64,000 nt of DNA, taken from IMG/VR virus record IMGVR_UViG_3300042398_001353; one strand, written 5' to 3'. The notes under the pieces were generated by a model. It was not told the DNA's origin and searched no databases. It saw only the letters and a program-made list of their open reading frames with translations. The stretch is from a virus (Duplodnaviria; Heunggongvirae; Uroviricota; Caudoviricetes). The first letter of the stretch is position 1. Every line of letters starts with the position of its first letter. Shown piece by piece: positions 39,998-63,552 of the stretch. A program made the translations under genes and the position numbers.

Positions 39998-40552
39998 ATG
40001 AAATTACAAGAAAACATACAAAGGATCAAACAGGTAATGGGTTTAAATGAGATGAGAAATCCATGGTTCAATTATGTGCAATCCAAAACAAAGGAAATTA
40101 CTGGACAGGATTGGCCTGAGTATGTATTAAAGGATTGGTTGTATGCTTTCACCAAAAGAAGTTATTTTCCTGAGAAGGGTGAAACTCCAGAAGATTATAA
40201 AAACATTGTTAGGTCCTTTGTGGAAAGTTTTGTAGAGGGACACGGTAAAGGTAAATGGGAATACAGGGTATTGGATGTTAGTATGGATATTTTTATTCCA
40301 TCTATACAAGATTCGTTAAAACAAAAGATGGAAGGGTCTATTAGTACAGATGTTCCCAAAGATGAAGAAAGACATAATGTACAGCAATCTCAATTAGATA
40401 AGGTGGGAGTATCTCCTGAACCTATTATTGTTCTGCAGAAGAAAGACGGAATTGAATTATTGGAAGGTTGGCACAGAACCACATCAGCGCTTAAGAAATT
40501 TGGCACATATCAGCAAAATGCTTGGGTATATGTTCCTGACATGTTAAAATAG
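39998..40552 (+). CDS. leader-tagged protein, class-2 leader
   Basis: MKLQENIQRIKQVMGLNEM; shares the N-E-x-I-x-R-I/V-K-x-x-M-G/N-L-x-E leader with 46202 and 46726. Confidence 0.45.
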   Translation: MKLQENIQRIKQVMGLNEMRNPWFNYVQSKTKEITGQDWPEYVLKDWLYAFTKRSYFPEKGETPEDYKNIVRSFVESFVEGHGKGKWEYRVLDVSMDIFIPSIQDSLKQKMEGSISTDVPKDEERHNVQQSQLDKVGVSPEPIIVLQKKDGIELLEGWHRTTSALKKFGTYQQNAWVYVPDMLK

Positions 40553-40573
40553 TTTTTCCAGAATTTTTTAATA

Positions 40574-40586
40574 ATATTTATATATA
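40574..40586 (+). promoter_or_regulatory. ATATTTATATATA box
   Basis: Ends 1 nt before ATG 40587. Confidence 0.4.
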
Positions 40587-41153
40587 ATGAAATTAATTGA
40601 CATCCTTAACGAATCGGCAGAGCAACAGAACATCAATAAGGTTAAGACCGAGTTCTCAAGAAGGTTCGATAAATTTGTTGCAAAATATACCCCTGAATTA
40701 AAGCAAGCATCTAAGGTTATTGATGTTTTTCCTATTGTGGCCCAGGTTAAAATTTACGTATTAAATAGAATAGCACAAGAGTATCCCAACATGATATCCG
40801 GTAAAGGTGGTGATAAGTTTGCTTATGGTGCTTGGGTTTATGCTAGTGGTTTACTTAATAGTGAGATAGACAAGATCGGTTGGGTTAAGAAGCAAGCCAT
40901 TAAAACACTTGCGGGGAGTAGGGATAAGTTTATGCAAAACTCCAAAATTGCTGCCAATGATACCGATCAGTTATATGATTTCATTTCTGGTGTTTTGGAT
41001 ATTGGGTATATTGCTGGGAGTGAGTTGATTGATGATATGAAGTTGGCTGACAATTCAACAAGTTATAGTCAACAGTATATGGACTGGATAAGTAAGAACT
41101 GGAGAAAGATGGAGACCAGTGTGATTAATTCAATTGCAAACAAATTATATTAA
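40587..41153 (+). CDS. leader-tagged protein
   Basis: MKLIDILNESAEQQ. Confidence 0.45.
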   Translation: MKLIDILNESAEQQNINKVKTEFSRRFDKFVAKYTPELKQASKVIDVFPIVAQVKIYVLNRIAQEYPNMISGKGGDKFAYGAWVYASGLLNSEIDKIGWVKKQAIKTLAGSRDKFMQNSKIAANDTDQLYDFISGVLDIGYIAGSELIDDMKLADNSTSYSQQYMDWISKNWRKMETSVINSIANKLY

Positions 41154-41687
41154 ATGAAACTATTATCAGTAATAAGTGAGATTGCAACAGATTTAAGTAA
41201 GGTATATCCTTTTTCCAAGATAGAGAAGAGTTTTGATCCAGCTGAAAGAGATAAAACCATATATAACTTTGAGACTGAGAGTGGTAAACTATATAAGGTT
41301 AGTTTTTTCCCTATATCAAATAGATTCTATCCGGACGGAACTTATGTAAGGGAGTATGCTCCATATGATATGCTTGGGTGGCAGGGAACTGGTATTGATG
41401 ATAAGTCATTAACCGGGGAGAATAAAGCATTGAAAGTTAATGCAACCGTTATGGCAATTACCATTGATTGGTTAAATAACAATAAGGATCTGAATACATT
41501 CTATCAATTACTTATTAAGCCTGTGGATAAAAGAAGATATAAGTTGGTTATGATGTTTATCAATAATCACATTGCTGGTCAATATGACATTACACATGAT
41601 GACTCGCTGGGTGAAACGATTATCATTCGTAATATTGGTGCTAAACCTAGATATTTTGATATGGGCACACGTATGTGGACACGTTAA
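41154..41687 (+). CDS. leader-tagged protein
   Basis: MKLLSVISEIATD. Confidence 0.45.
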   Translation: MKLLSVISEIATDLSKVYPFSKIEKSFDPAERDKTIYNFETESGKLYKVSFFPISNRFYPDGTYVREYAPYDMLGWQGTGIDDKSLTGENKALKVNATVMAITIDWLNNNKDLNTFYQLLIKPVDKRRYKLVMMFINNHIAGQYDITHDDSLGETIIIRNIGAKPRYFDMGTRMWTR

Positions 41688-41698
41688 CATCCTCTAAA

Positions 41699-41710
41699 GT
41701 ATTTATATAA
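41699..41710 (+). promoter_or_regulatory. GTATTTATATAA box
   Basis: 12 nt upstream of ATG 41722. Confidence 0.35.
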
Positions 41711-41721: not shown

Positions 41722-41985
41722 ATGGGTAAGAACATATCACTAACAGACGCTCAATTAAAAGCATTAGTTAAAAAAGTACTTAATGAAGGTGCGGAAGAAG
41801 CTTCACAGGTAAAGCTTCAAAGATGGCAGCAATTTGTTAAAGCTGTGAATATGCATTTAAATCAGATAAAAAATACTCCACAAATACAAACAAACCAACA
41901 ACTTATGGATGAAATGGTAAAAGAGATAATGTTGGACTGTAAGGACTTCCTAAGTAAAAAAGAAATTAAAATTACAATCCAATAA
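41722..41985 (+). CDS. leader-tagged small protein
   Basis: MGKNISLTDAQLKALVKKVLNEGAEE. Confidence 0.45.
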   Translation: MGKNISLTDAQLKALVKKVLNEGAEEASQVKLQRWQQFVKAVNMHLNQIKNTPQIQTNQQLMDEMVKEIMLDCKDFLSKKEIKITIQ

Positions 41986-41987
41986 CG

Positions 41988-42014
41988 AGACCCTCCAAAA
42001 CGGAGGGTTTTTTG
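41988..42014 (+). terminator. rho-independent terminator
   Basis: ccctcc-aaaacg-gaggg(g) followed by TTTTTT. Confidence 0.7.
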
Positions 42015-42015
42015 T

Positions 42016-42030
42016 TTATATTTATACTAT
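42016..42030 (+). promoter_or_regulatory. TTATATTTATACTAT box
   Basis: Immediately precedes ATG 42031. Confidence 0.4.
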
Positions 42031-42513
42031 ATGAAATTTTCTAAACTTATAGCGGAAATCTTAATGGAACAAACATCATGTGAGGATCCTGATGATTGTG
42101 TTCCGGAATCAAAGGTATCAGAATTTCCAACTCCAGAAGAGATAAAAGCGGAGATTATTGCTCAAGGTATTGCACATCCAGATATAGTATTTGCTCAAGC
42201 TAGAATAGAGACCGGTAATTTTACAAGTAACATATACAAAGAAAACCATAATTTATTTGGAATGAAGGTTCCAACCAAGAGACCACATGATTTGGTTATA
42301 GGTAAGAATAGAGGTCATTCACAATATGCAAACTGGAAAGATTCCATTGCGGATTATAAGGTTTGGCAGAACTATATGAAGACATCCAAAACAAAGACCC
42401 CATTTAGTCAATTAGATCAAGAAGCATATCTTAAGATGTTAACAAGGGTATATTGTATTCCTCCTGATTGTAAGACCCCATATGGTGAAGAGGTTAGAAA
42501 GAGAATGGGGTAA
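42031..42513 (+). CDS. leader-tagged glucosaminidase-like (FlgJ-type lysozyme family) peptidoglycan hydrolase
   Basis: MKFSKLIAEILMEQ leader; IVFAQARIETGNF...HNLFGMK matches the Glucosaminidase signature (AQA.LETGWG...NNLFGIK). Confidence 0.6.
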   Translation: MKFSKLIAEILMEQTSCEDPDDCVPESKVSEFPTPEEIKAEIIAQGIAHPDIVFAQARIETGNFTSNIYKENHNLFGMKVPTKRPHDLVIGKNRGHSQYANWKDSIADYKVWQNYMKTSKTKTPFSQLDQEAYLKMLTRVYCIPPDCKTPYGEEVRKRMG

Positions 42514-42531: not shown

Positions 42532-43257
42532 ATGAAACTTATTATAACAGAATCTCAGCTTAAGAGAATTATTAGCGAAAATGTTAAGATTAAACCTGGC
42601 TCTCCTGAGGAGTTGGTTGGTTTATTGGATTTGTTACCAGTACATGACACAGCCAAGTATATTGGTGAAGAGATTTATCAGGATGTGATGAACTATTTTG
42701 ATAATGATGTTGAGTTACCTAGTGAAAAGAAATATTCGTTTCATCCAGAGGAAGCGTGTTTGCGTCCATATGAGGTAACCATCGATTTTATGCCATCAAA
42801 TAACAGCACGGGTCTTGGTTATGCTAGTGAGGACTATATTCAGGTAAAATTTTTAAGCAAGGATTCTAATGAATATAAGATGTCAAAAGGGTTTAATCCG
42901 GCTTGGCGTTTGGTTAAGGGATTATATCATATCCTTAAGCATGAGTGTAGTCATTTCTATTTGTCACAAAGGGGTGTTGAGCAATGTTTATATAACACAC
43001 ATCCAGATGGTATGAAGAAGTATTATCAGGATAGACAGGAGTTGGTTTTACACAGCAGAGAGATATTTGATAGATTCCAGGACGATTATCCTAATTGGAA
43101 AACGATGGATCTTGAATTAATTACCAAAAGAATTAGCAATAGGGTTAGGGATTTGCGTAGTCATACCAATATACACGCACCATTTAATGCTGGTACACAG
43201 AAGAAGTATGTTAGTTTCATTATAAACAGCTATATTAAACCAAACCTACAATCATAG
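42532..43257 (+). CDS. leader-tagged protein
   Basis: MKLIITESQLKRIISENV: consensus leader. Confidence 0.5.
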   Translation: MKLIITESQLKRIISENVKIKPGSPEELVGLLDLLPVHDTAKYIGEEIYQDVMNYFDNDVELPSEKKYSFHPEEACLRPYEVTIDFMPSNNSTGLGYASEDYIQVKFLSKDSNEYKMSKGFNPAWRLVKGLYHILKHECSHFYLSQRGVEQCLYNTHPDGMKKYYQDRQELVLHSREIFDRFQDDYPNWKTMDLELITKRISNRVRDLRSHTNIHAPFNAGTQKKYVSFIINSYIKPNLQS

Positions 43258-43280: not shown

Positions 43281-43607
43281 ATGGCTAATAAAAAGCAATT
43301 AATAGATCTATTAGAAAGATTACATGAGTACATGGATAATATCGCTGATGCTGATGGAGATTCTGAAGGATATCATCCAAATGAGGAAATGTCACTTATG
43401 ATTGAAATCGACGATATGTTGTATAGTCTAGGTGTTGAAGGACACGGATCTCATGCAAGAGCATCTGTTGATCCTAATTATGTGAGAGGTGGATTCGAAA
43501 TGGGCGAAGAAGCGCATGAAGAAGAGGAAGATCAAGAAGAAAAATATGACGCCGGATTAATGGAGTCAATAAATAAAATAAAAACAGAATTTAAAAGATA
43601 TTTGTAA
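43281..43607 (+). CDS. leader-tagged acidic small protein
   Basis: MANKKQLIDLLERLHEYMDN; E-rich. Confidence 0.4.
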   Translation: MANKKQLIDLLERLHEYMDNIADADGDSEGYHPNEEMSLMIEIDDMLYSLGVEGHGSHARASVDPNYVRGGFEMGEEAHEEEEDQEEKYDAGLMESINKIKTEFKRYL

Positions 43608-44092: not shown

Positions 44093-44117
44093 TTAAGCCT
44101 TTTAAAAAATTATAAAA

Positions 44118-44144
44118 GACCCTCTCATTGTAGAGGGTTTTTTG
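44118..44144 (+). terminator. rho-independent terminator
   Basis: ccctct-cattgt-agaggg followed by TTTTTT. Confidence 0.7.
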
Positions 44145-44159
44145 TTATATTTATATATT
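44145..44159 (+). promoter_or_regulatory. TTATATTTATATATT box
   Basis: Immediately precedes ATG 44160. Confidence 0.4.
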
Positions 44160-44663
44160 ATGAAGTTTAGAGACGTAATAAAAAGCATATTGATTAATGA
44201 GGACGAGAACGGCCCATCTGATAATGCAAAATGGATTGCAAAACAAGTATTGGTTAAGTTTATGTTTGCTGATAGTAAAGAACAGACTGATTTTGTAACA
44301 GATTATGATCTAACTGTAAATGGTGAATCGTCCTTTCTTCTAGATCCTGGTAGTGGTCATGAGTTTTGGCTTGAATACACTTTTGAAATTGATGTCACAT
44401 CATACCCATCATATACCCCAGCAACATGGGACGATCCAGGTGACTATGATCCAGCAGAATATGGATTTAATATAACAGGTTTGTCAGTTATTGAGAATAA
44501 CGAATCGGTATATAAGGGACCAGATTTTACCAATTTTTTAGATTTTAAGGTTGGGGAATTGGAATCACGTTATGGTGCACCTAGAAAAATAGATGGTTCT
44601 GATTTCTTATATGAATTTTTTGGTGATAGAATTGAAGAAGAATTAAATAACCTAATTGATTAA
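44160..44663 (+). CDS. leader-tagged protein
   Basis: True start MKFRDVIKSILINEDENG at 44160; the track start at 44142 lies in the promoter box. Confidence 0.45.
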   Translation: MKFRDVIKSILINEDENGPSDNAKWIAKQVLVKFMFADSKEQTDFVTDYDLTVNGESSFLLDPGSGHEFWLEYTFEIDVTSYPSYTPATWDDPGDYDPAEYGFNITGLSVIENNESVYKGPDFTNFLDFKVGELESRYGAPRKIDGSDFLYEFFGDRIEEELNNLID

Positions 44664-45572: not shown

Positions 45573-46079
45573 ATGAAAATCATCATCACAGAGACCCAAT
45601 TAAAATCTATTATAGAGGTTAGCGGGAAACCAAAGTACCCAAATTTAGATTTAATGTCTGATGATGAGGTAGCACAAATTGCGTCTGAACATATCAAGAA
45701 GTATAGAACACTTAAAAATAATAAGGCTTTATTAAATGCGTGTATAGAGAGAGGTATAGATTATGACTCATTCAGACCTTTGACTAGTGCTAAGAAATAT
45801 AGAATGATGAGTGATGATGAGTTATTGAAATTGGCTAGAAAGTATAGCAATATGGGAGACCTTCAGCAGAAAGCCGGTGTATTATATTACGAATTAAAAA
45901 AGCGAGATATATCTAAGAATTTATTTAAACCTTTTATGAGGTATATCAATACGGAGATTCCAACTGATATGTTTTTAAAGAAGAAGAAAGATTATACAGA
46001 CTTGGATGATGATAGAAGATATGACAGTGATTCTTTTATGTTTAGTCCTGTTAACGAGGAAATTAGAAAGAAGAATTAA
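45573..46079 (+). CDS. leader-tagged protein
   Basis: MKIIITETQLKSIIEVSG. Confidence 0.5.
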   Translation: MKIIITETQLKSIIEVSGKPKYPNLDLMSDDEVAQIASEHIKKYRTLKNNKALLNACIERGIDYDSFRPLTSAKKYRMMSDDELLKLARKYSNMGDLQQKAGVLYYELKKRDISKNLFKPFMRYINTEIPTDMFLKKKKDYTDLDDDRRYDSDSFMFSPVNEEIRKKN

Positions 46080-46201: not shown

Positions 46202-46702
46202 ATGAAACAAACATTAAACGAACAGGTTGCTAGAATTAAAGCTATGATGAATCTTAATGAAGATGATTCACAAGCCATGTTAATGCAGGACACACAAGAA
46301 TTTAATGAAAAGGTTGACGAAGATTTAACTCCGGAAGAATTTAAGGAAGTTATATGTTCAGATCCTGATGCTCTTGAATTACCACAAGATATTACTAGTG
46401 AACAGAAACAAACTGTTGATCAGTTAAAACAAAAAATGAAAACTGCATCATTTTCTGAATTAATCCAGGCAAAAAGACAATTAAAGGAATTAAAAAGACA
46501 ACAGCAAAATGAACAGGTTGCTGGACCGGCTGTTATAACTTTATTGGGTGTTAGTATGCCACCCGCTTTTGCTATGGTAATTGGTGGAATAATTTTTATC
46601 ATGTTATTAACAATTTTAAGTAGATTCTTTAAATTTACAAGAACAGAAACCTATTGGTGTGATGGAAAAAAGTCACGTTTATTTGGTTTGCTTAGATGGT
46701 AG
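46202..46702 (+). CDS. leader-tagged protein with C-terminal TM anchor, class-2 leader
   Basis: MKQTLNEQVARIKAMMNLNED; C-terminal hydrophobic AMVIGGIIFIMLLTILS. Confidence 0.45.
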   Translation: MKQTLNEQVARIKAMMNLNEDDSQAMLMQDTQEFNEKVDEDLTPEEFKEVICSDPDALELPQDITSEQKQTVDQLKQKMKTASFSELIQAKRQLKELKRQQQNEQVAGPAVITLLGVSMPPAFAMVIGGIIFIMLLTILSRFFKFTRTETYWCDGKKSRLFGLLRW

Positions 46703-46725: not shown

Positions 46726-47334
46726 ATGATGAATATGAAAAAGAATATTAACGAAGAGATTGAAAGAGTTAAAGATGTGATGGGTCTTACGGAGAACGTC
46801 GCTGTTAATTCATTGGACGACTTTCCTGAGGATATAAAAAAGATATTTTTAAACAACTATCTTCATTTGATCTCTAAATTTGATTGGAATAAAGAAAACG
46901 CGAGATTTACAAACAGGGCCACGGGAGAGTATGATGGTGAGGGATTTAATAAATGGATGAAGGAAGAAGAGAAGCGACAGTTTGAAAAAAGCAAAAGAAA
47001 AATAATGGCCGCTGTTGCTGAAGATGTGATTAACCTTAAAAGAAAAATGTATTTTCGTAAAAAAGCTGAAGAGTTTGAAAACGAATTAAAAGATCTTTTT
47101 GGTTTTCATATTATGGGTAATCATGAAGAGGTTGGTAGTCACATCAGTGACGATGTATTTCGTAAGTTTGTTGAAGAAAGACCTAAGTATAAAAAATATT
47201 ATGACAGATGGTCAAATCTTGAAGATGAAGACACCAAATACTTATTAAAGAACTATCATTCGGCGGCTAACGTTCCATCATATGCTGAGATAAGAAAAAT
47301 ATACAACTTTTTAAAAACAGGTAAAACAACATGA
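46726..47334 (+). CDS. leader-tagged protein, class-2 leader
   Basis: MMNMKKNINEEIERVKDVMGLTEN. Confidence 0.45.
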   Translation: MMNMKKNINEEIERVKDVMGLTENVAVNSLDDFPEDIKKIFLNNYLHLISKFDWNKENARFTNRATGEYDGEGFNKWMKEEEKRQFEKSKRKIMAAVAEDVINLKRKMYFRKKAEEFENELKDLFGFHIMGNHEEVGSHISDDVFRKFVEERPKYKKYYDRWSNLEDEDTKYLLKNYHSAANVPSYAEIRKIYNFLKTGKTT

Positions 47335-47747
47335 AACTAATAGACTTAATAACAGAAGGTTCAAACAAAAAGATTAATTGCAATCATTGTGATTGGTCAT
47401 GGAAAGAATCTGAAGGTGGTAAAGACAAATATGTTTGTCATAAGTGTGGTCATGATAATAAACCTGGATCATTTGATGAGTTTGCTCAGACAAGAATGAA
47501 AGGTGCTGATAAGATTGCAACAACCGCTAAAGCAAAAGGTGGTCCAGCAATGCTAACCTATCACCACTTCCACGTTAAGAATCCTTATTATAAAAAAGCG
47601 GCTGAAGGTAAGTTTGATCTTGCTGCAGCTAAAAAAGAATTTAAACAATGTGTTAAAGACTTATCTTCTGACATGGAACAAGTTGCATTTCAGAAATTGG
47701 TTGGACGCATTGAGGTGATTGGTGAATTAATCATCAAACACAAATAA
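47331..47747 (+). CDS. leader-tagged protein with CxxC pairs
   Basis: MKLIDLITEGSNKK; CNHCDW...CHKCGH zinc-ribbon-like. Confidence 0.45.
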   Translation: MKLIDLITEGSNKKINCNHCDWSWKESEGGKDKYVCHKCGHDNKPGSFDEFAQTRMKGADKIATTAKAKGGPAMLTYHHFHVKNPYYKKAAEGKFDLAAAKKEFKQCVKDLSSDMEQVAFQKLVGRIEVIGELIIKHK

Positions 47748-47854: not shown

Positions 47855-48499
47855 ATGAAATTTGAAGATATTTTAAAAGAGGTTAATCATGTTGATTTAG
47901 ATGAAGCAACACCCGTCGAGAAGGATGAACTTGGGTCTGGTGCTGATCACCATGTCTACCCATCTAAACATAATCCAAAGATTGTATATAAATTAGGATC
48001 GGAGCATGCTGTGGATTTCTGGTTTGATATGTTCAAGAGCAATCCTAAGGTTTTTCCTGTTGTTTATAAAAGAGGTAAAACAAAAATGAGATTAAAGAAA
48101 GACAAGGTTGTCTTTAAGGATAATGGATTTGTTAGACTTAAAGCTGGTTCTGTTGAACCTGTTGATTATGTTGAAATGGAAAAACTTGATCCAAAAAGAG
48201 CGGAGACCGAATGGAAGTTATTAAATGATGCTATTATTGATATAACAGAGGGTCAATGGGATTTTCAAGACTATGTTCTTCATTTTGCATTATTCGAAAG
48301 TTCTAATATGAAACCAGATGTTGCATTGATGGTTCACGTTGTTGATGAATTAAAATCTGGGTTCCCAAGTGAACATAAAATGATATTAAGGTTTCTGGAT
48401 CTAATTATGGAGATTAAAAAAATAAACAAACACCCGGATTTACATATGTATAACTTTGGTTATGACACAAAGGGTGTTCTTAAGTGTCTTGACATTTAA
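47855..48499 (+). CDS. leader-tagged protein
   Basis: MKFEDILKEV. Confidence 0.45.
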   Translation: MKFEDILKEVNHVDLDEATPVEKDELGSGADHHVYPSKHNPKIVYKLGSEHAVDFWFDMFKSNPKVFPVVYKRGKTKMRLKKDKVVFKDNGFVRLKAGSVEPVDYVEMEKLDPKRAETEWKLLNDAIIDITEGQWDFQDYVLHFALFESSNMKPDVALMVHVVDELKSGFPSEHKMILRFLDLIMEIKKINKHPDLHMYNFGYDTKGVLKCLDI

Positions 48500-51377: not shown

Positions 51378-51611
51378 ATGAATAAAAAAGTAAAATTAAC
51401 AGAAAGTGAATTAACTAATTTGATTAAAAAAATTCTTAGTGAAGAAGTTAGTAACAAACAAACGATATCAATTGAAAGTTTACATGAGTACATGCACAAC
51501 GAGTATAACCAAAAAAACAATAAAGGTGTTAAATTAGAATTTACATTTGATGGTACAAATATGGTTGTGAATTTTAATGGCGCTAAAATGGTTGTCGAAA
51601 AATGTTGGTAA
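51378..51611 (+). CDS. leader-tagged small protein
   Basis: MNKKVKLTESELTNLIKKILSEE. Confidence 0.45.
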   Translation: MNKKVKLTESELTNLIKKILSEEVSNKQTISIESLHEYMHNEYNQKNNKGVKLEFTFDGTNMVVNFNGAKMVVEKCW

Positions 51612-51619: not shown

Positions 51620-51656
51620 TAAAAAAGAAACCCCAAGAAATTGGGGTTTTTTTTAT
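51620..51656. terminator. bidirectional rho-independent terminator
   Basis: A-run, cccca-agaaat-tgggg stem, T-run; sits between convergent genes 51378..51611 (+) and 51653..52570 (-). Confidence 0.7.
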
Positions 51657-54445: not shown

Positions 54446-55652
54446 ACTTAAAGAATCTGAGGTTTTCAATGTTATTACCAAGATTATAAACGAAGAAACA
54501 GCTGGTGAAATTACAGTAAGTGCAAGTAATGATTTAGGTACACATCCGGAGTTTGGTGGATTGTTATCTTTATTAGGACAACTTAAAAAAAATGTACAAG
54601 CAGCATTAAGAGGTAAGATCCCATATAGAATTAAAACAGATAGTCAGACAGGAACTGTTAAACCATCAAAACAAGGTAATGCTTTAGTTTTGTCGGTTAC
54701 ATTAATCCCTTGTGAAGAAAGTGAGAGACATTATTTCTTTGATGGTGCTGGTGGTATCTATAGCTATATTAACACAACAAGTGAAAAATCAGTTCATTCT
54801 AAAGTTAGAACTGCTGTTATGAATAAAGCAACTGCTGGTTTTGCGGGTGCAGAACCACAAGAAGCATACCCTAATCACATCAATCTACGTGGATTCACTA
54901 ACTTAAACACTGTTGAGCCAAATAAGGAATATAAATTAATTTTAAAGTTTTTGGTTGGAAAAAGACCTGGTGGATATTATGATGTTGGTGACGATGAACC
55001 GGAACAAAAAATTGATAATAAAACAATAGATAATACAAATAAAGCATCTACAGCGGCGACAAAACAAGATGTTGGTACTGAACCGGAAAAGAAAGTTGAA
55101 AGTAAAAGTGAAAAACCAGTTTCTGCGGAATGGGAAGCTACTGACATAGATACCGCACATAAAGTGAAAACTTTTATTACTGATGTTCAAGCACAATTAG
55201 AGGATATGTGGAAAAAGGGTAAAAATCCTATTGTTGAGGATATTGAAATGACGATTATAAAAAATTCTGACGGTTCATATAAAACAAAAACCAGTGCAAC
55301 AATAACAGAAAGCCAAGATGGTAAAGCTTGGGTTGGTATTGAAAGTAGGGGTTCTGCTGGGGGTGACTATCAAAATAGAGCGAATGATCAATATTATGGT
55401 GGTAGATATGACGATAAAGGTAGACCAGTAATTGATAAAAAGACAGGTAAACAACTTAATAAAGGTCAATCAGAAAAAAAGGCTGACGGAACTGATAACC
55501 CATGCTATGGTAAATCATTAATTGATTGTATGAAACTACCTGCTATTGGTGGTGATGAAGTTAAATTACTTAAGACGGTTGAAGACGCTAGTGTTCCATT
55601 TAAACAATATTTTGTAATTTTTACAAAACCAAAAAAATTCCCACCTAGATAA
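54429..55652 (+). CDS. leader-tagged protein
   Basis: MKRIIKLKESEVFNVITKIINEE. Confidence 0.45.
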   Translation: MKRIIKLKESEVFNVITKIINEETAGEITVSASNDLGTHPEFGGLLSLLGQLKKNVQAALRGKIPYRIKTDSQTGTVKPSKQGNALVLSVTLIPCEESERHYFFDGAGGIYSYINTTSEKSVHSKVRTAVMNKATAGFAGAEPQEAYPNHINLRGFTNLNTVEPNKEYKLILKFLVGKRPGGYYDVGDDEPEQKIDNKTIDNTNKASTAATKQDVGTEPEKKVESKSEKPVSAEWEATDIDTAHKVKTFITDVQAQLEDMWKKGKNPIVEDIEMTIIKNSDGSYKTKTSATITESQDGKAWVGIESRGSAGGDYQNRANDQYYGGRYDDKGRPVIDKKTGKQLNKGQSEKKADGTDNPCYGKSLIDCMKLPAIGGDEVKLLKTVEDASVPFKQYFVIFTKPKKFPPR

Positions 55653-56128
55653 TGAAAATAGTGATAACAGAAGAACAATTTAATAATTTATATAACGTAC
55701 CGGACAGACCAACATTGACTGAGGTTGAGTACATTATTGATGTGATTTATGAAGAGGATGAGAACAATAAAGATAACGAAGAAGATGACTTTGATTTAGG
55801 TGGAAGTGGTGAAAGAGGCGAACATCATCTATATTATTTTTATATTGGTGAAGCATTCTTTGATGAATTTTATGATAAAACTTATTTAGAATTATTTGAT
55901 CAATATAAAGATGATGCGGGTGGTTGTGAAAAATTTGTGGATGCCGTTATTGGTGATATCTTAAAAAAGATGAAGCAATCAATTGAAGAAAAAACCGCAG
56001 CAAAAATCTTAAAGAAAGTTATTAAAAGACAAAGCACTGTTAGATTCAAAGAATCTGATATACGAAAAGCTTTAGATGCGCATTTTGGTAACTTTATTTG
56101 TAATGAGTTTATTGAGGAAACTCGTTAA
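55652..56128 (+). CDS. leader-tagged acidic protein
   Basis: MKIVITEEQFNNLYN. Confidence 0.45.
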   Translation: MKIVITEEQFNNLYNVPDRPTLTEVEYIIDVIYEEDENNKDNEEDDFDLGGSGERGEHHLYYFYIGEAFFDEFYDKTYLELFDQYKDDAGGCEKFVDAVIGDILKKMKQSIEEKTAAKILKKVIKRQSTVRFKESDIRKALDAHFGNFICNEFIEETR

Positions 56129-57963
56129 ATAATATCTTTTAATATTGATTTAAAATTAAGCTTTTCAAATAAAGGTTCGATTTGCATATGATTAACTAGG
56201 TTGTCAACTTGAACAGAACCCTCTTCCGTCTTGTTAGTTTTTTTGTTAAACAATTTAATATCAACACCATTTTCACATGTAAAATGTTTAAACCAAGGCT
56301 GTTTTAACTCTATTCTAACAAATTCATTTTCATAAACGCCAGCGTCACTAAAATATTTTTCAAATATCTTAATTAAAGTATTTCTTGTTTCTTTGCAACC
56401 AGTTTCTTCGTTATCAAAAAATTCTTCATGCTTACTATCAAAATAATCATCAAAAGCATTATCCATAACTTCTTGTGATGGATATTCATAATCATATTCT
56501 GGATATTCAATATAGTCACTATCCGGTAAATCATAATAATCCATATAATCGCGAATAAAATCTTCTAGTGATTCTATTGAATAAATTTCTTTTTCACTAA
56601 TAAATTCAATTAATTTTTCTATTGGTGCTTTTATCACCTTTTCACCACCCCAGAATGTATCAAGTTCTAACACAGCTTCATATTCTTTAATTATTGCTTC
56701 AATAGCAGCTTCTAAAGCGGCACCAGATCCTTCTGTGAATTTATCGAGATATTCATCTCTAACTTTTTCATTTTTATATAGTCCAGAGTTTTCAGCAAAC
56801 TCCACGAAATTTTCATGGGTTCTACAATAAAACCCAAAAAGATCAATTAATTTGTTTTTATTTTTCTCATAATAATTGTATAAATAACCTGATAAAATAT
56901 TTTGGGCTTCATATCTATAACTATCATATTCTGATTCTGATACACTATTGTATGCATCATTGTGCCAAGATCTTAACGTTCGTAAACTATCGTCATAACC
57001 TTCAACTGATGACGGTAATATTTTAACATCAATTTCTAAATTACCTCCACTTATTGCATAATTAGCACTTTTATCAGTAAGGAAGTTAGCCAATTCATCT
57101 TCATTTTCGTTATTCAATGCGGTAACAAAAGGGTTGGTACCACCATATTCTTTATATACAACTTCTCTGTATATAGTTAGGTCAGATTGATCCAAGAATT
57201 TTTTACCTTTTGCTAATTCAGATTTAACATCATCAAGATCTGGATTTGAAATATATAGTGATGGAAAAAATAATTTTTTAATTTCTAACCTTTCGTTAAA
57301 AAAATTAGGTCTGTTACCAACCTCATTGTCTGCAGGGTTTTTTAATTGATTAGATGGGAAATGTAATTGATACTTATCGTTCTCATTTTCTTTGTTAACA
57401 ATAATATACAATGGGCCTTGTGGTGAATATGAATTAAATCGACATGTTCTATCTTTATGATCAGGGTTTAAACTATAATCTCCCCAAGCCGTACACCATT
57501 CTGTGTTAACACCAAGATAGGATGAGGCTTTTTCACTTTTTGGTACTATCACGAACCAGCTATCGCCATTGTGTTTTACCTCATATTCTTTTGGGTCTAG
57601 AGCTTCTATTAGCGTTGCTAAACTTGTATTTGTTTTTACTATTTTATTTTTAACAAGTTCGTAAAGATCTGGTATAGAATTAATTTTCATTTGACCAATC
57701 TTCATTTGATATTTGTAAATTAACTCAAGATATTCTGTTGCTTTTGGTAAATCTTCAAATTTTAAATTACCATTTCTATACATGTTAATTAAGAAAGGAA
57801 AATAAGAACCTAGTCGAATAATTTTATCATCAATTATTTTTGTTTTAGGATCAGCGGAGGCAATTCTAATGAAAGTTTTTCTTTCAACATCAGAAAAGCG
57901 TTTTTTATAAACACCTTCTTGATCTTCGGTTAATAGGCCGTATATCACTTCTCTAAATTTCAT
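56125..57963 (-). CDS. leader-tagged large protein (612 aa)
   Basis: MKFREVIYGLLTEDQ; rich in Y/E/D. Confidence 0.45.
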   Translation of the reverse strand: MKFREVIYGLLTEDQEGVYKKRFSDVERKTFIRIASADPKTKIIDDKIIRLGSYFPFLINMYRNGNLKFEDLPKATEYLELIYKYQMKIGQMKINSIPDLYELVKNKIVKTNTSLATLIEALDPKEYEVKHNGDSWFVIVPKSEKASSYLGVNTEWCTAWGDYSLNPDHKDRTCRFNSYSPQGPLYIIVNKENENDKYQLHFPSNQLKNPADNEVGNRPNFFNERLEIKKLFFPSLYISNPDLDDVKSELAKGKKFLDQSDLTIYREVVYKEYGGTNPFVTALNNENEDELANFLTDKSANYAISGGNLEIDVKILPSSVEGYDDSLRTLRSWHNDAYNSVSESEYDSYRYEAQNILSGYLYNYYEKNKNKLIDLFGFYCRTHENFVEFAENSGLYKNEKVRDEYLDKFTEGSGAALEAAIEAIIKEYEAVLELDTFWGGEKVIKAPIEKLIEFISEKEIYSIESLEDFIRDYMDYYDLPDSDYIEYPEYDYEYPSQEVMDNAFDDYFDSKHEEFFDNEETGCKETRNTLIKIFEKYFSDAGVYENEFVRIELKQPWFKHFTCENGVDIKLFNKKTNKTEEGSVQVDNLVNHMQIEPLFEKLNFKSILKDII

Positions 57964-59491
57964 TTAATCTATCGTTTAATATTTCATTAAAATTATCTCT
58001 ATCAGCATCTGGATACCATCTATCATCAACATCTAATCTAGGTTTTTCAATATAACCGTCCCCCAATAATTCATTGAATAAACATTCAACATCACCATCA
58101 TCACCATCACATCGTTCGCTAATCTCATCCATATCTTCATCACTAATATTGTTATTTGATATTAATGTTTCTAAATCTACTGAAATAACAATACCTTCGT
58201 CATTCATACTTATTATCTCACCATATTCTTCAAATGCACTCTTAACATTTTTGTATAAATAATCTTCATAATCATTCGCCTCAGCATCATTAACCGACCA
58301 ACGAATTCTATTTTTAATTTCGTCATCTTCATCATATTCCTCAATAAGTTCTAATAAATTCTCAGAGCCTGTTATATTTGGATTTTTTTGTTTTAGTATA
58401 TCAACAATTTTTAAAATATTATCATTGTTTAATTCATTTTCAACAGCATATTTCCAATCAGCATATTCACTATTATCCCAATATTGCCAGGTGTTACCAA
58501 CCAAAACGTCATCAACAATATTACTATATTCTCCTCTAACATAATCTTCAGCTTGTTTTGGGTAAATTGTTAATGTAAAAATTCCATATTTTAATGGTTC
58601 AACTAAACCGATGCTCCTTAACAATTTATATTCTTGCCTACCTTTAAACAATTCTGGCCTATCTTGATAAAGTTTTTTAATTTCTTCTTCTGTTAAATCA
58701 GAAATTTTAAAATCTTTTTCACTAGCATATTCATAACCAATATCTTCAATCAAGTACCCATCTTCATCTTTAAAATAAAATAATGGTAAAATTACTGAAT
58801 GATATTCACTCGTTGGTTTTGAATTTTTTTGACCTTTTAATTGTAATAAAGATCCAGATTCATTAATTGATGCTGTTAAGTGACTTTTATTTAGTGTGTG
58901 ATCATTTTCAATTTTTTTAAAACTCCTTAATGAATATAAAACACCTCTTGTGCTTGCACAATGTCCCATTCTCTCAGCTTCATCAGGACAATTACCTGTA
59001 CCTAAATTAACCCAGTAATACCCCACACCATTTTTTCTAAAATCTAATATAATATCTTTTGTTTCATTATAATCTATTTTTGATTCACCAATACCTAAAG
59101 ATTCGTGCCATCTTTCAGATTCATCATATAACTCTTTAAAACTTAGTTCTTGATATGATTTAATATTACCAGCTAAAGCGACTCTAACCCAGTCCATAAT
59201 TCCTCGCATCTTGTCTCTTTCTCTAGTAAAAGAGTTAGACCCATTAACCAATCCCATTCTTTGTTGAATAGAAATTTTATCTCTATTGATGATTTCTTTA
59301 GCCCTATCCGCGGTATCATAATATTCTTCTTCATACATTTCTAGTATTTTATATGCGAAAAATATTGACAATGGTCCAGCTATTCTTGATAACGCTTCAG
59401 CCTGATCGTCCTTTACTTTCAGTTTATTGATTAATATGTCCTTTTTACTAGCCTCAGTTAGTATATTTTCTAACAGTGATTTAAATTTCAT
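57953..59491 (-). CDS. leader-tagged protein carrying the RMGHC module
   Basis: MKFKSLLENILTEA; ERWHESL...DFRKNGVGYYWVNL...RMGHCAS paralogous to the modules in 1524..4598 and 62317..63552. Confidence 0.5.
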   Translation of the reverse strand: MKFKSLLENILTEASKKDILINKLKVKDDQAEALSRIAGPLSIFFAYKILEMYEEEYYDTADRAKEIINRDKISIQQRMGLVNGSNSFTRERDKMRGIMDWVRVALAGNIKSYQELSFKELYDESERWHESLGIGESKIDYNETKDIILDFRKNGVGYYWVNLGTGNCPDEAERMGHCASTRGVLYSLRSFKKIENDHTLNKSHLTASINESGSLLQLKGQKNSKPTSEYHSVILPLFYFKDEDGYLIEDIGYEYASEKDFKISDLTEEEIKKLYQDRPELFKGRQEYKLLRSIGLVEPLKYGIFTLTIYPKQAEDYVRGEYSNIVDDVLVGNTWQYWDNSEYADWKYAVENELNNDNILKIVDILKQKNPNITGSENLLELIEEYDEDDEIKNRIRWSVNDAEANDYEDYLYKNVKSAFEEYGEIISMNDEGIVISVDLETLISNNNISDEDMDEISERCDGDDGDVECLFNELLGDGYIEKPRLDVDDRWYPDADRDNFNEILNDRLNEI

Positions 59492-59963
59492 TTATTCCAA
59501 ATTTTGCTCTTATTATGTCCATACTATGCTGTGATAACACCCACTGAATATTGCGAGCAACTTCTCGTGGTAATTTTTTTTCAAGTCTTTTTTGTTCTAA
59601 GTTGTTATCTCCATATATTTTGTGAACAACAAAAGAAACTATATCAAAAGCGTTATACTCACTAGACATACCCATTAAAACCTCAACCTTTTCTCTGGTC
59701 GTTAATTTTGTGGTGTCAATATATGGGAATATTACCGGTAGTCTTTTTGTCATTTCCACAATATCCTCACAATCATTTTCGTTTTCTCGACATCTGGCCC
59801 ACATGTTCCAAACGTCATCTGACGTTAAATTACCCCCAAAATCATATTGTTGAGCTAGTTCAGTACCATAAAGTGTATCAAAAATAACCGCCGGTTTGCT
59901 ATTGATTTCAATGTGTTTTTTGATTAATTTGTTATACTGGCTTTCAGTAATGAGTATATTCAT
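59481..59963 (-). CDS. leader-tagged protein
   Basis: MNILITESQYNKLIKKHIE. Confidence 0.5.
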   Translation of the reverse strand: MNILITESQYNKLIKKHIEINSKPAVIFDTLYGTELAQQYDFGGNLTSDDVWNMWARCRENENDCEDIVEMTKRLPVIFPYIDTTKLTTREKVEVLMGMSSEYNAFDIVSFVVHKIYGDNNLEQKRLEKKLPREVARNIQWVLSQHSMDIIRAKFGINEI

Positions 59964-59998: not shown

Positions 59999-61129
59999 AT
60001 GAAACGTATTGTTGTAACAGAAAACCAAGCAAAAATGATTGTTGACTATATTATTAGTCAAGAAGAGACCATTAGTGAACAAAAAGTATTAGCTACAACA
60101 ACCGAAACAAAACCATCTAAGGTTTATAATATTAGCAATTCTTTTGCTAGTGGTCAATACAAATTAACAAATACCAAAGAGATTGTTGCTGCGATGGGCG
60201 CAATAAACAAAGAAATTGATGGTTATCCTGATAATCAACAATTTATAATAAATGTGGAGTCTTCCGAATCTGCTGTTCCACCACCAAGTGGTATGAGCGT
60301 AGGTGATCTTTCTAGATTAAGGGGTGAGGCTGTTGAGACTTTTTTAAGAAATGGAAAATATATTGATGATAAGGTTCAAATCAAGAAAATTGACAAAGGT
60401 GTTCAAGGTCCAGCTTGGGATGTAAATAAAGGTAAAAATGATCCAGAGTATAAAAAAAATCAATATGTGACACTTTCTCTACAAGTAATTGGTAGCAAAA
60501 CGGTGCAAACAATATGTAATTTTACCGAAAATAAAGTAGGTGGGGTTGCTAGAAAAGAAGATGATTTTGTTGGTTATAACAAAACGATTGATATTAGTAA
60601 ATTACCAGATGGTACTAAATTTAAAATTGTGTTTTCACCAGCACAAATGGCAGATATGTTGGTCGTTAATGCGGGATCTTTTAATTATAACACCGGATTT
60701 GTTTCTGGTGCACCAACAAGCCCAATGATCAATGCTTGTGTTGCAACCGCATTATATTATGGTTATAATGGTAATATTCCCAATTATTTCCCTAAAAATA
60801 TAGTTCAATTGGATAAGTATGATGCTCAGGATATATTTGCAAATTCAAATTTTGAAAATTTTGCATATTATTGGGGACATGTAATGGATAAACAATATTT
60901 TACTTGGGGTAAAAATATATTCTTAAACAGCGTTAAATTATACACATTTGATGGTCCAACCATAAAACAAACAACAACAGACGATCCGGATTTTAAAGAA
61001 TTAAACCCTAATAATGATGGGTCTGTTGGTGTTACTTTAACAAAAGATCAAAGTATGTCATCTGTTACCATGAGGGTATACAGCCCTGTTGGTGGGACGA
61101 TTTGGAAATTGGGGACTAAGTGTCTCTAA
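59999..61129 (+). CDS. leader-tagged protein
   Basis: MKRIVVTENQAKMIVDYIISQEE. Confidence 0.45.
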   Translation: MKRIVVTENQAKMIVDYIISQEETISEQKVLATTTETKPSKVYNISNSFASGQYKLTNTKEIVAAMGAINKEIDGYPDNQQFIINVESSESAVPPPSGMSVGDLSRLRGEAVETFLRNGKYIDDKVQIKKIDKGVQGPAWDVNKGKNDPEYKKNQYVTLSLQVIGSKTVQTICNFTENKVGGVARKEDDFVGYNKTIDISKLPDGTKFKIVFSPAQMADMLVVNAGSFNYNTGFVSGAPTSPMINACVATALYYGYNGNIPNYFPKNIVQLDKYDAQDIFANSNFENFAYYWGHVMDKQYFTWGKNIFLNSVKLYTFDGPTIKQTTTDDPDFKELNPNNDGSVGVTLTKDQSMSSVTMRVYSPVGGTIWKLGTKCL

Positions 61130-61351: not shown

Positions 61352-61405
61352 AATCTATTTTTTTACAAAACTAATGTTATTTTCTTAATTCTACAAAAAA
61401 ATTTG

Positions 61406-61422
61406 TAATATTTATTATATAA
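61406..61422 (+). promoter_or_regulatory. TAATATTTATTATATAA box variant
   Basis: 28 nt upstream of endolysin ATG 61450. Confidence 0.3.
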
Positions 61423-61449
61423 TAACTAAACATTGAAAATCAATATATT

Positions 61450-62292
61450 ATGCTTTTAAAATTAGGATCTGAAGGAGAAGACGTAAAAAAACTCCAAACA
61501 AAGTTAGGGGTTGACCCCATTGGCAAATTTGGCCCTAAAACCGATGCTGCTGTTAGAGCTTGGCAAGCTGCCAATGGATTAACTGCTGATGGTATTGTTG
61601 GTGACGGAACATGGTCTAAGATGTTTGCTGAAGGTACCGTTAGTGCACCATCTGTTATCACAGAGCCAGCACCAGCACCAAGTGTTGGTGGATTAAAATT
61701 AGAGAAACTAAAGGGGCATATACCAGACGCGGTTATTGCACAAATTCCTGATACAGCAGCTAAGTTTCAAATTAACACACCATTACGTTTAGCCCATTTC
61801 TTAGCACAATGTGGACATGAGAGTGGTGGATTTAGAGCAACACAAGAAAACTTAAATTATTCAGCAAAGGGTTTGAATGGTATCTTTAAAAAATACTTTC
61901 CGACTGAAGCAGCTGCGGCGGCTTATGCTAGACAACCAATTAAAATAGCATCTAAGGTTTATGGTGGTAGAATGGGTAATGGTCCAGAATCAACTCAAGA
62001 AGGGTACAAATTTCGTGGAAGAGGTTATATCCAATTGACTGGTAAAGAGAACTATACAGCATTTGGTAAAGCAATAAATGAAGATATTTGTTCAAACCCA
62101 GATAAGGTAGCAGCTAATTACGCGTTGTTGTCAGCCGCTTGGTTTTTCAGTAAAAATGGTTTACATAAAATGGCAGATGAGGGAGCAAGTGATCAAGTTG
62201 TGACTAAGATAACAAAAAGAGTTAATGGAGGTACAATTGGTTTACCAGATAGAATAAAACACTTTAAAGAATACTACGCATTATTGGCATAA
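61450..62292 (+). CDS. endolysin: PG_binding_1 + glycoside hydrolase family 19 (chitinase-like lysozyme)
   Basis: EDVKKLQTKLGV...FGPKTDAAVRAWQAANGLTADGIVG (PG_binding_1); HFLAQCGHESGGF and FRGRGYIQLTGKENY (GH19 catalytic motifs). Confidence 0.75.
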   Translation: MLLKLGSEGEDVKKLQTKLGVDPIGKFGPKTDAAVRAWQAANGLTADGIVGDGTWSKMFAEGTVSAPSVITEPAPAPSVGGLKLEKLKGHIPDAVIAQIPDTAAKFQINTPLRLAHFLAQCGHESGGFRATQENLNYSAKGLNGIFKKYFPTEAAAAAYARQPIKIASKVYGGRMGNGPESTQEGYKFRGRGYIQLTGKENYTAFGKAINEDICSNPDKVAANYALLSAAWFFSKNGLHKMADEGASDQVVTKITKRVNGGTIGLPDRIKHFKEYYALLA

Positions 62293-62319
62293 AAAAAGGG
62301 GTTTAAAACCCCTTTTTTA
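62291..62319. terminator. bidirectional rho-independent terminator
   Basis: AAAAAAAGGGGTTTAAAACCCCTTTTTT between convergent genes. Confidence 0.7.
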
Positions 62320-63552
62320 TTTTGCTATACTATCTTCATCATCTTCATCTGGTGACATCTTATCCACCAATTCTTGCGCTTGTTGTTTTGTTAAAAATTG
62401 GAATTTTCTTTCCAATGCGTTTTCACTCAATTTTGCAAAAATTATAAAATCGTCATTGGTTTTCACACTCTTAAAATCTTTTAATTGATACCAAGTACCT
62501 TCAATCATATAGTTGTCAGTATAATCACTAGTTTCATCTAAAAGATATTCATAGTCTTTAATTACTTCAAGTGTTTCTATGTTTACAACACCATAATACT
62601 TTGTTGAGTTACTTCTTCCATCTTCTTTAAATAAGACAACGTCATTGTTGTCTTTGTTGGTGTATATTCTTTTTTTATCTCCAAATAGATAATCAATTTT
62701 TATTTCTTTATTATTTGAAAATACTTGAGCTAATTGATCCTTACTTAAATCTTCTAATTGAAAATTTTGATCATATGCGTAAATATTTTTTTCAAATCCA
62801 ACTACTGGGAATTTCTTATTCAATAGCATATCAATAATAAACTTGAAAAAAACTTCTTTAGGTTTTCTATTTTTAGGTCCTTTCATTTGACCTAATTTAC
62901 GTGTTTTAGGATCATATGAAATTGTTACATGTGATCTACCGTCCTGTATTTCATCAATGCTTCTAAGTGAAAATAATACTTTACCACTATCATTACCACA
63001 GTGACCCATTCTTCTTTTTTCTTCCTCGGACATACTTGTGTTCAAATTAGCCCAATAAAAACCAACACCATTTTTTCTATAATCTAAAATTATTTCATGT
63101 TCTTCATTGTAGTTTGAGCTAACTCCGGTTTCCAATGATTCATGCCAAATTGTTGATTTTTCAAGAGCATCTTTAAAACTTAATATTTTAACATTAACTC
63201 TAGAAGCAACTCTTGGGTTTGATAACCAGTCAAATATGTATCTATACTTTTCTTCGTAATCTTCTTTCCATATAAGATTCCTAGGACCACTAGTGTTTAA
63301 TATTTCCCTAGCGGCTCTTTTTAGGTCTTTTTCCTCTTTAAATCTTTTATTTGCTTTCTTCTCAATTGTTTTTTTGTGTGTAACAGTATAATCATTTAAA
63401 AACGAATTTGCTACCCAAATACAGTGTTTTTCACTTAGTTGATAAAACTCTTCAGCCCATGCTGGACTAAACCCCATGGCTCTTTCTATTGTCTTTTTCT
63501 TATCCGTATTTTCGTTGATAAGAATTTCGTAAATTATATCTTTGAAGTTCAT
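62317..63552 (-). CDS. leader-tagged protein carrying the RMGHC module
   Basis: MNFKDIIYEILINENT; TIWHESL...DYRKNGVGFYWANL...RRMGHCGN. Confidence 0.5.
   Translation of the reverse strand: MNFKDIIYEILINENTDKKKTIERAMGFSPAWAEEFYQLSEKHCIWVANSFLNDYTVTHKKTIEKKANKRFKEEKDLKRAAREILNTSGPRNLIWKEDYEEKYRYIFDWLSNPRVASRVNVKILSFKDALEKSTIWHESLETGVSSNYNEEHEIILDYRKNGVGFYWANLNTSMSEEEKRRMGHCGNDSGKVLFSLRSIDEIQDGRSHVTISYDPKTRKLGQMKGPKNRKPKEVFFKFIIDMLLNKKFPVVGFEKNIYAYDQNFQLEDLSKDQLAQVFSNNKEIKIDYLFGDKKRIYTNKDNNDVVLFKEDGRSNSTKYYGVVNIETLEVIKDYEYLLDETSDYTDNYMIEGTWYQLKDFKSVKTNDDFIIFAKLSENALERKFQFLTKQQAQELVDKMSPDEDDEDSIAK

Follow-up and report, generated by a model that had tools for sequence, protein, structure and literature searches.

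An N-terminal leader of three classes on about thirty genes of a freshwater metagenomic phage, a candidate capsid-targeting propeptide of the T4 kind

In bacteriophage T4, a short N-terminal peptide, the capsid-targeting sequence (CTS), is carried by the unrelated and non-essential proteins IPI, IPII, IPIII and Alt. It ends in [I/L]-x-E and is processed by the S77 prohead protease gp21. An E-to-D change at P1 stops this cleavage in T4 and leaves targeting intact. For IPIII, targeting needs no more than the first 10 residues, and processing depends on residues 8 and 10; other CTS-like proteins are known from related phages (PMC9026906, PMC3012670). In the jumbo phages phiKZ and SPN3US, many head-internal or ejected proteins are matured after Glu by a T4-related protease (PMC9026906, PMC5694885). 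Their propeptides are long, end in S/A/G-x-E and contain no conserved transferable tag. Here we analyzed a stretch of 64,000 nucleotides (the window) from IMG/VR record IMGVR_UViG_3300042398_001353, a freshwater metagenomic phage, in which about thirty genes, most of them in a block at 39998-63552, begin with a common peptide (the leader). On balance we lean towards the view that these leaders are capsid (prohead-core) targeting propeptides, analogues of the T4 CTS, which come in three interchangeable classes on some 30 or more cargo genes.

At about 33% GC the window is AT-rich, and no tRNA genes were found in it. Counting by hand and with hidden Markov models (HMMs) gave 29 leader genes and one possible leader gene (43281, MANKKQLIDLLE), with three related classes of leader. 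Class A (15 genes) has the consensus MK-x-I-x-[IL]-T-E-x-Q-[LFY]-K-x-[LI]. Class B (3 genes) reads MKxxxNExIxRIKxxMGLNE, and class C (11 genes) reads MKFxD[IV][IL]xE, frequently lengthened to ..ILTE. Within 39998-63552 a leader is present on 27 of 31 genes; among the leaderless genes are those for two signal-peptide proteins (44667 and 61058) and for a PG_binding_1+GH19 endolysin (61450). Outside the block the leader occurs on 1524-4598 (+) and 4599-5129 (-), and further leader genes follow to the right of the window end. An earlier sequence-only reading of this DNA had noticed a common leader on about 30 proteins, including the genes at 1524 and 4599, and both observations held, the latter two genes being class A. 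That reading had described two leader classes; class C (MKFxDILxE) had not been set apart.

The position of the leader was tested by several searches. A strict class A regular expression matched 11 times in the six-frame translation, each time 2-4 residues past the start Met of a long open reading frame (ORF). A degenerate DNA pattern for class A gave 4 matches versus 0.00 expected in shuffles. In 1.3 Mb of fetched sequence, 174 N-terminal 26-mers reached 15 bits or more with the class A HMM compared to 1 matched internal 26-mer; these loci were picked by a leader pattern, which gives one match per locus by construction and leaves the contrast with internal segments unaffected. An unbiased scan of 1.84 billion protein representatives with a 29-column profile returned 36 proteins at E<=0.001, and the match began at residues 1-3 in 26 of these. 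A word-indexed protein search with a leader-only profile was uninformative (126 candidates, 6 matches). The shared N-terminal leader in the block is confirmed as real. The leader genes and two terminators are listed below, with lengths in amino acids (aa), leader sequences and the positions of the TATTTAT box described further on; a slash marks a putative cleavage position.

1524..4598 (+): class A, 1024 aa, MRIVLTEDQIARIKLKLDKEGLNE; box at 1512-1518; body with PG_binding_1, Peptidase_M23, a weak glucosaminidase match and a domain in common with 57953 and 62317
4599..5129 (-): class A, 176 aa, MGIKIVLTEEQIERLESKVGKVEISE/ARLSC; Kyano_Gp96 family; box at 5136-5142
39998..40552 (+): class B, 184 aa, MKLQENIQRIKQVMGLNE
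40587..41153 (+): class C, 188 aa, MKLIDILNE; box at 40575-40581
41154..41687 (+): class C, 177 aa, MKLLSVISE
41722..41985 (+): class A, 87 aa, MGKNISLTDAQLKALVKKVLNE; box at 41700
41987..42011 (+): intrinsic terminator hairpin, followed by the TATTTATA box and the next leader gene
42031..42513 (+): class C, 160 aa, MKFSKLIAEILME; glucosaminidase domain; box at 42019-42025
42532..43257 (+): class A, 241 aa, MKLIITESQLKRIISE; box at 42519
43281..43607 (+): possible class C-like, 108 aa, MANKKQLIDLLE; box at 43259; no HMM score
43607..44092 (+): class A-like, 161 aa, MYKNFNLTDEERKEIME
44112..44145 (+): intrinsic terminator hairpin, followed by the TATTTATA box
44160..44663 (+): class C, 167 aa, MKFRDVIKSILINE; box at 44148-44154
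45573..46079 (+): class A, 168 aa, MKIIITETQLKSIIE; box at 45561-45567
46202..46702 (+): class B, 166 aa, MKQTLNEQVARIKAMMNLNE
46735..47334 (+): class B, 199 aa, MKKNINEEIERVKDVMGLTE
47331..47747 (+): class C, 138 aa, MKLIDLITE, then a Zn ribbon, then a conserved body
47855..48499 (+): class C, 214 aa, MKFEDILKE; box at 47841
48513..49226 (+): class C, 237 aa, MNLIQILTE; box at 48502
49223..50413 (+): class A, 396 aa, MKKIKITESQLKRLVLKE
50446..51348 (+): class A, 300 aa, MKKTIKLTESELIKLVKKVISE/AALEPEP; box at 50420
51378..51611 (+): class A, 77 aa, MNKKVKLTESELTNLIKKILSE
51653..52555 (-): class C, 300 aa, MRLLDILTE; weak 2H-phosphoesterase and HAD matches below cut-off; box at 52561-52567
52605..53459 (+): class A, 284 aa, MKIIITSDQFKRIKGS; weak GNAT match; box at 52594
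53459..54445 (+): class A, 328 aa, MKKLVITEDQYKRLV; Peptidase_C39 joined directly, from residue 16
54429..55652 (+): class A, 407 aa, MKRIIKLKESEVFNVITKIINE
55652..56128 (+): class A, 158 aa, MKIVITEEQFNNLY
56125..57963 (-): class C, 612 aa, MKFREVIYGLLTE
57953..59491 (-): class C, 512 aa, MKFKSLLENILTE; body domain in common with 1524 and 62317
59481..59963 (-): class A, 160 aa, MNILITESQYNKLI; box at 59969-59975, in a palindromic divergent promoter region
59999..61129 (+): class A, 376 aa, MKRIVVTENQAKMIVDYIISQEETISE; box at 59974
62317..63552 (-): class C, 411 aa, MNFKDIIYEILINE; box at 63560-63566

The bodies behind the leaders are largely unrelated. When the first 30 residues were removed, BLASTP similarity was found among only 3 of 34 module proteins (1524, 57953 and 62317), and the domain common to these three carries a class A leader on one protein and a class C leader on the other two. 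In the fetched sequence, 180 class A ORFs fell into 108 body clusters. Conversely, members of one family (FEEFA..GAEKIA..LTYHHF) differ in leader class: class C is found on 47331 of the window and on gp082 of Flavobacterium phage immuto, class A on those of the loci L046, L073, L104 and L062. Thus the classes are exchanged on one body. Serine in the leaders is encoded by TCT, TCA, AGC and AGT, and the I/L/V column uses 7 codons. Such synonymous codons at conserved residues, with both Ser codon families in use, indicate selection on the peptide. In the L009 orthologues, at about 75% identity, the motif is kept and the exact residues drift. The leaders are rich in K and E and amphipathic, with a median maximum hydrophobic moment of 0.56, which is above the 90th percentile of body 11-mers. 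A hydrophobic h-region after a basic n-region, as in signal peptides of the Sec, Tat or lipoprotein type, was not seen in the leaders; real signal peptides are found only on 44667 and 61058. The leader is a modular peptide tag and neither a fold element nor a DNA signal. The earlier suggestion of a transferable tag, as opposed to the first helix of one fold family, is borne out by the unrelated bodies and the class swaps on one body.

As the sequence-only reading had noted, the leaders carry an (I/L)-x-E motif. When the first 25 residues were inspected, [ILM]xE was present in 28 of 29 leader proteins versus 26 of 76 non-leader proteins. Its density there was 5.1 times that of the leader-protein bodies. 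These figures partly restate the leader motif, the second site at residues 13-27 being more independent. The T4 substrates in NC_000866 have a like pattern and read MKTYQEFIAE/A (IPII and IPIII), ..STITE/A (IPI), MELITE/L (Alt) and MLKEQLIAE/A (gp22).

The junction between leader and body was followed in the Kyano_Gp96-like family, to which the protein at 4599-5129 belongs. This protein has 19 homologues of 43-100% identity, all with MGIKIxLTE.Q...L...V......E. Mean pairwise identity is 0.79 in the first 13 residues versus 0.49 in the body. Glu9 and Glu26 are nearly invariant, position 24 is hydrophobic and position 25 is variable. The most distant homologue, P0164, is without the leader and begins exactly after ISE, at A27. 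AlphaFold2 was run with the homologue alignment. The resulting model has a predicted local distance difference test (pLDDT) score below 50 for residues 1-27, with a helix at 9-18, and of 77-89 in the body. In this family the ISE/A junction is therefore also the predicted AlphaFold confidence boundary and the start of the leaderless homologue. High conservation without packing on the body, as modeled here, is how a partner-binding propeptide would be expected to look. For the body itself nothing significant was found (Foldseek best E=0.16; hmmsearch against PDB E=0.11 to 8y6v 'gp85').

We then looked at the carriers of the leader. A 75%-identical relative of the window is located on a 251,149 bp IMG/VR contig and another relative on a 255,292 bp scaffold, and thus the genome is jumbo-sized. 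The module gene content is unlike between the window and its 75%-identical relative. The leader DNA pattern was present in at least 120 stretches of IMG/VR. Most true leader genes lie on contigs of 27-35% GC, many of them 100-356 kb long, and often 3-7 stand in tandem. Large neighbours of leader genes include Portal_T4 (Gp20), the Gp23 major capsid protein, tail sheath and type IX secretion system (T9SS) sorting domains, the last of which point to Bacteroidota hosts. T4 gp21, gp23 and gp20 detected homologues in the leader-bearing L080, L121, L073, L046 and L041, and the protease relatives keep the ELNHP and SSRG motifs. Scanning IMG/VR with a gp21 profile gave at least 591 loci, of which 80 were taken; the 251 kb relative was not among these 80. 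Among the matches listed, 120 of 120 gp21 relatives were PF03420, many of them on 200-333 kb contigs; a 324 kb contig shows the canonical order TerL, Portal_T4, S77, scaffold, Gp23. The nearest cultured capsid protein is that of immuto (160 kb, NC_055915), the head set of which comprises portal, prohead protease, scaffold and Gp23. Genes common to immuto and the window with its flanks are 49-62% identical, and the immuto region syntenic with the window is about 90 kb away from the immuto head genes. Megablast and tblastn against cultured phages revealed no close cultured relative for the module proteins. Judged by its head genes (Gp23, Gp20, S77/gp21), the leader-bearing clade is T4-like.

In several of these relatives, leader genes are found among head assembly genes. 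The order in L046 and L073 is gp21, two class A genes, scaffold, capsid gene; in L041 it is capsid gene, class A, class C. In L080 the protease gene has a class A gene as its immediate neighbour. LR756508 (484 kb) has more than 25 genes with a variant (MK[LI][ST]E.KLR.II.EE) or class C-like leader around its protease, scaffold and capsid genes. About 6 leader-like N-termini were counted in immuto, including gp072 between portal and protease. Identity of the 47331 body is 62% with the head-operon gene of L046 and L073, which has a class A leader, and 56% with immuto gp082 (class C, MRLLELLRE). Leader genes also often adjoin tail sheath genes.

A TATTTAT box precedes 17 leader genes in the window and ends 4-7 nt, sometimes 15-19 nt, ahead of the ATG. 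With TATTTAT(A) placed 4-7 nt before the ATG, the transcripts would be leaderless or nearly so. The 45 nt upstream of each gene were then compared in 80 protease-centred loci; gp21 had the box in 78 of 79 cases and the scaffold gene in 60 of 63, versus 27% of all ORFs. On other contigs it stood upstream of 49% of class A ORFs versus a background of 20%. Since the same box is found before the gp21 and scaffold genes, TATTTAT is probably the late or head promoter of the clade. From this common box we infer that it functions as a promoter and that the leader genes are co-expressed with the head morphogenesis genes. Sigma-70-type sites were not enriched in the block. The box also exists without a leader, for example at 24858(-).

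Some further features of the box were seen. On the coding strand, TATTTAT(A) is the reverse complement of T4's TATAAATA. Between the divergent genes 59481-59963(-) and 59999-61129(+), the palindromic TATAAATATTTATA at 59964-59998 holds a box that is properly spaced for both. Near-identical cassettes at 41987-42030 and 44112-44159 read CCCTC...GAGGGTTTTTTGTT(T)ATATTTATA and consist of terminator hairpin, promoter box and ATG.

The sequence-only reading had named a set of tagged enzymes within a 'virion module'. The M23, glucosaminidase and C39 domains of this set were confirmed with Pfam. GNAT (E=0.004) and 2H/HAD (E=3e-4 to 7e-4) stayed under the Pfam cut-offs, and an alpha/beta-hydrolase was not found among the block proteins with Pfam. 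Neither Pfam nor PHROGs detected a structural (virion) family anywhere in the block, and PHROGs contributed endolysin- and peptidase-type labels only. With no identifiable structural gene in the block, 'virion module' is a label and not an observation. In the window and in 128 tagged proteins elsewhere, the recognizable cargo is mostly cell-wall enzymes (M23, glucosaminidase, Phage_lysozyme, LysM, Hydrolase_2). C39, M78, DUF932 and other domains were also seen, and most cargo is without known relatives.

Two details concern the region just behind the leader. In the C39-like peptidase at 53459-54445, the class A leader ends only about 5 residues before the catalytic Cys motif GISCGPTC; if packaged, this protein would be an injected protease. 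In 47331-47747 the class C leader is separated from the conserved body by an inserted CxxC...CxxC zinc ribbon, CNHCDWSWKESEGGKDKYVCHKCGHDN. This ribbon also stands directly after class A leaders in small proteins of the contigs L026, L035, L036, L067, L043 and L031.

If the leaders are CTS-like propeptides, the following scheme would apply. The phage would be a T4-like phage of about 250 kb with a Bacteroidota (Flavobacterium-type) host. Each cargo gene would be its own late transcription unit under the head-gene TATTTAT box, and cargo would therefore be made alongside scaffold and protease. The amphipathic N-terminal peptide of 9-26 residues would dock the cargo on the assembling scaffold core. 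A gp21-type S77 prohead protease would cut after the Glu of [I/L/V]-x-E and free the mature cargo inside the head. The freed cargo (peptidoglycan hydrolases, the C39 protease and many proteins without known relatives) would probably be ejected with the DNA. Docking to the core, cleavage, packaging, ejection and a protease in the phage's own genome are the steps that we infer. The comparison with the T4 tag, first drawn by the sequence-only reading, gains from the transferable (I/L)xE tag, the T4-like carriers with S77, the head-operon neighbours, the common box and the ISE/A boundary; it loses the recognizable virion module.

The likeness to the T4 CTS also extends to a clade with Gp20, gp21, scaffold and Gp23, to cargo that includes enzymes and to the apparent late co-expression with head genes. 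Unlike in T4, there are three classes of leader and a host phylum Bacteroidota, and some 30 or more genes are tagged in 24 kb versus 4-5 in T4, with more than 100 cargo families across relatives. With phiKZ and SPN3US this phage would share its jumbo size and many head-internal or ejected proteins matured after Glu; in contrast to these, the motif here is [ILV]xE, and canonical Gp23 and Gp20 are present in the relatives.

Several findings weigh against CTS-like propeptides. Conservation of class A runs beyond the first ITE site. The leaders have no alignment-based similarity to the T4 CTS MKTYQEFIAE and share with it only a pattern (MK, hydrophobics, [IL]xE), and they measure 9-26 aa versus 10 aa. 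The commonest cargo domains are cell-wall hydrolases, with Phage_lysozyme in 10 and LysM in 7 proteins, and these could equally be borne by the tail or baseplate. The isoelectric point (pI) of the bodies ranges from 4.1 to 9.8, so that the cargo is not uniformly basic as the T4 internal proteins are, and the idea of such a basic cargo was dropped. Only 11 class A ORFs were found in 0.9 Mb of gp21-centred loci, and leader genes therefore usually lie outside the head operon. Scaffold N-termini scored at about the 90th-95th percentile with the leader HMMs, which is not significant; leaders that copy the scaffold N-terminus, as the T4 CTS resembles gp22, were rejected on these scores. Finally, the search for a prohead protease and a capsid gene proposed by the sequence-only reading had a divided outcome. 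Capsid, portal, scaffold and S77 genes were all missing from the window and its 10 kb flanks, and protease and capsid genes were present in leader-bearing relatives and in immuto.

One could go further and take classes A, B and C as a sorting code for different partners, copy numbers or head fates (retained, ejected early or ejected late), by which these abundant aquatic Bacteroidota jumbo phages would inject a programmable set of more than 100 effector families, anti-defence enzymes included, each recognizable in the sequence from its tag. We hold this extension to be improbable.

Alternatively, the leader may be a docking or assembly helix that stays uncleaved and binds a partner other than the core, such as tail or baseplate, portal, a chaperone or a membrane-proximal site, without gp21 processing. 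An amphipathic, conserved leader that is not packed on the body would suit such a helix, as would the box in common with late or structural genes and the conservation of class A past the first [IL]TE. However, a cleavage site would be in keeping with the invariant junction Glu and its hydrophobic P3 residue, and with a leaderless homologue whose first residue follows that Glu. Peptidoglycan hydrolases, tail-associated in other phages, are numerous among the cargo, and leader genes often stand beside tail sheath genes; but cargoes of 77-114 aa and enzymes are improbable as tail building blocks, and leader genes are placed between protease and scaffold in L046 and L073 and around the head genes in LR756508. 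We consider an uncleaved helix unlikely, though worth keeping in view.

The leader could also be an interaction or localization module of late effectors that are not part of the virion, directed for example to the cell envelope at lysis. This would agree with a block in which no structural family is found, with the enrichment of cell-wall enzymes in the cargo and with a mixed pI, unlike that of the T4 internal proteins. The leader is charged, however, and not of the Sec, Tat or signal-arrest-release (SAR) type, true signal peptides are carried by 44667 and 61058, and the endolysin 61450 is untagged. Moreover, T4-type head machinery co-occurs with the leaders and relatives place leader genes in head operons. 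Non-virion effectors thus appear to us an improbable explanation.

A nucleic-acid feature, either near-leaderless mRNA initiation or a recombination cassette of terminator, promoter and leader, or both, has very little chance of being the primary cause. Shuffling mediated by PeSL (promoter early stem-loop) elements is known in T4-type phages (PMC2839356), where repeated terminator and promoter units flank small genes without known function in the variable, hyperplastic regions and plausibly aid shuffling (PMC2839356). The cassettes at 41987 and 44112 resemble such PeSL units, the box ends 4-7 nt ahead of the ATG, and the module gene content differs between the window and the 75%-identical relative. 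Unlike in PeSL, the promoter is the head-gene box of the clade and not a sigma-70 early promoter, and the repeat reaches into the coding leader. Conserved residues, however, vary in synonymous and six-fold codons, there are three distinct peptide classes whose motifs are kept at 43-60% protein identity, and box-preceded genes without a leader occur, as at 24858(-). As a secondary effect that aids the shuffling of cargo genes, a nucleic-acid role is plausible.

Double-glycine-type leaders, processed by the phage C39-like peptidase (53459-54445) for export or activation, can practically be set aside: they share with the present leaders an amphipathic N-terminal peptide of 15-25 aa, a C39 domain encoded nearby in the module and, presumably, a class A likeness to the LSxxELxxIxGG type, but a G[GAS] site at a plausible distance is found in just 5 of 29 leaders and at inconsistent positions, so that this type was ruled out for want of a consistent GG, GA or GS site, the C39 protein is stand-alone with no ABC transporter in the window and itself bears a leader, and C39 occurs once among the 128 tagged proteins from other contigs.

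In bacterial microcompartments and encapsulins, encapsulation or cargo-loading peptides made of a short amphipathic helix and a linker address diverse enzymes to the shell interior. The leader is likewise a predicted amphipathic helix with a linker. In contrast, its presumed setting is a tailed-phage head with a maturation protease, and Pfam gave no match to microcompartment (BMC-H/T/P) or encapsulin shell genes in the window or flanks.

We found no published description of this leader system in the literature. The novelty of cargo-tagging as such had been overstated, since the T4 principle is established (PMC9026906, PMC3012670) and these leaders are carried by many public viral contigs and, a few of them, by immuto. 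What is new is a set of leader sequences that fall into three interchangeable classes, the density of about 30 tagged genes in 24 kb, the more than 100 cargo families across relatives, the uncultured clade of T4-like Bacteroidota jumbo phages and the tight coupling to a box at the ATG. Should the tag prove to be a capsid address, the packaged and probably injected proteome of a large, abundant and almost uncultured freshwater and marine T4-like jumbo clade could be read off by a simple rule on sequence, and dozens of function-unassigned proteins would become candidates for anti-defence or a part in host takeover. New leaders and hosts would be added to the CTS principle of T4, already in use for protein delivery and display, and phages would be able to scale internal cargo from a handful to tens of proteins. 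The cultured immuto carries a few such leaders, so that the idea is directly testable there.

Other parts of the window and of the related contigs showed additional features. The mostly minus-strand block 24000-39200 has about 40% GC versus about 33% elsewhere and encodes DUF932, DUF6011, DUF4314, DUF1281_C, GP88, DUF3846 and DUF6915. The same block was found on the separate short contigs L007 and L008. Its gene set is typical of conjugative-element or anti-restriction islands, and the block has the look of an island that was gained horizontally and now divides the region of leader genes. The non-leader block contains an HNH_3 gene, two T5orf172/MUG113 genes and a resolvase gene at 10998-11396, 11606-12568, 18973-19635 and 19643-20419; these are probable homing or mobile endonuclease-type genes. 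In the left flank of the window (L004 1-10000), NifU_N, Fe-S_biosyn (IscA-like), AdoMet decarboxylase, thymidylate synthase, NlpC/P60 and a PcfJ-like protein are encoded, and auxiliary metabolic genes of this kind are unusual for a phage.

In the related T4-like clade the head module also contains a ribosomal protein S21 gene, located between portal and protease in L224 (9241-9432), L080 (3276-3467) and L121 (1754-1939). Some portal or adjacent genes are oversized, as in L080 (280-2541) and other large neighbours, and Intein_splicing/LAGLIDADG_3 was found in two large proteins, which suggests inteins in structural or replication genes of the clade. A further N-terminus is common to the adjacent immuto genes gp077 and gp076 (NC_055915 117631-118931), which lie immediately upstream of the terminase; it reads M(A)DNFNLRSFLTENKLT.N..LLKE in one and MENFDLKKFLVENKLT in the other and may be a fourth leader type.

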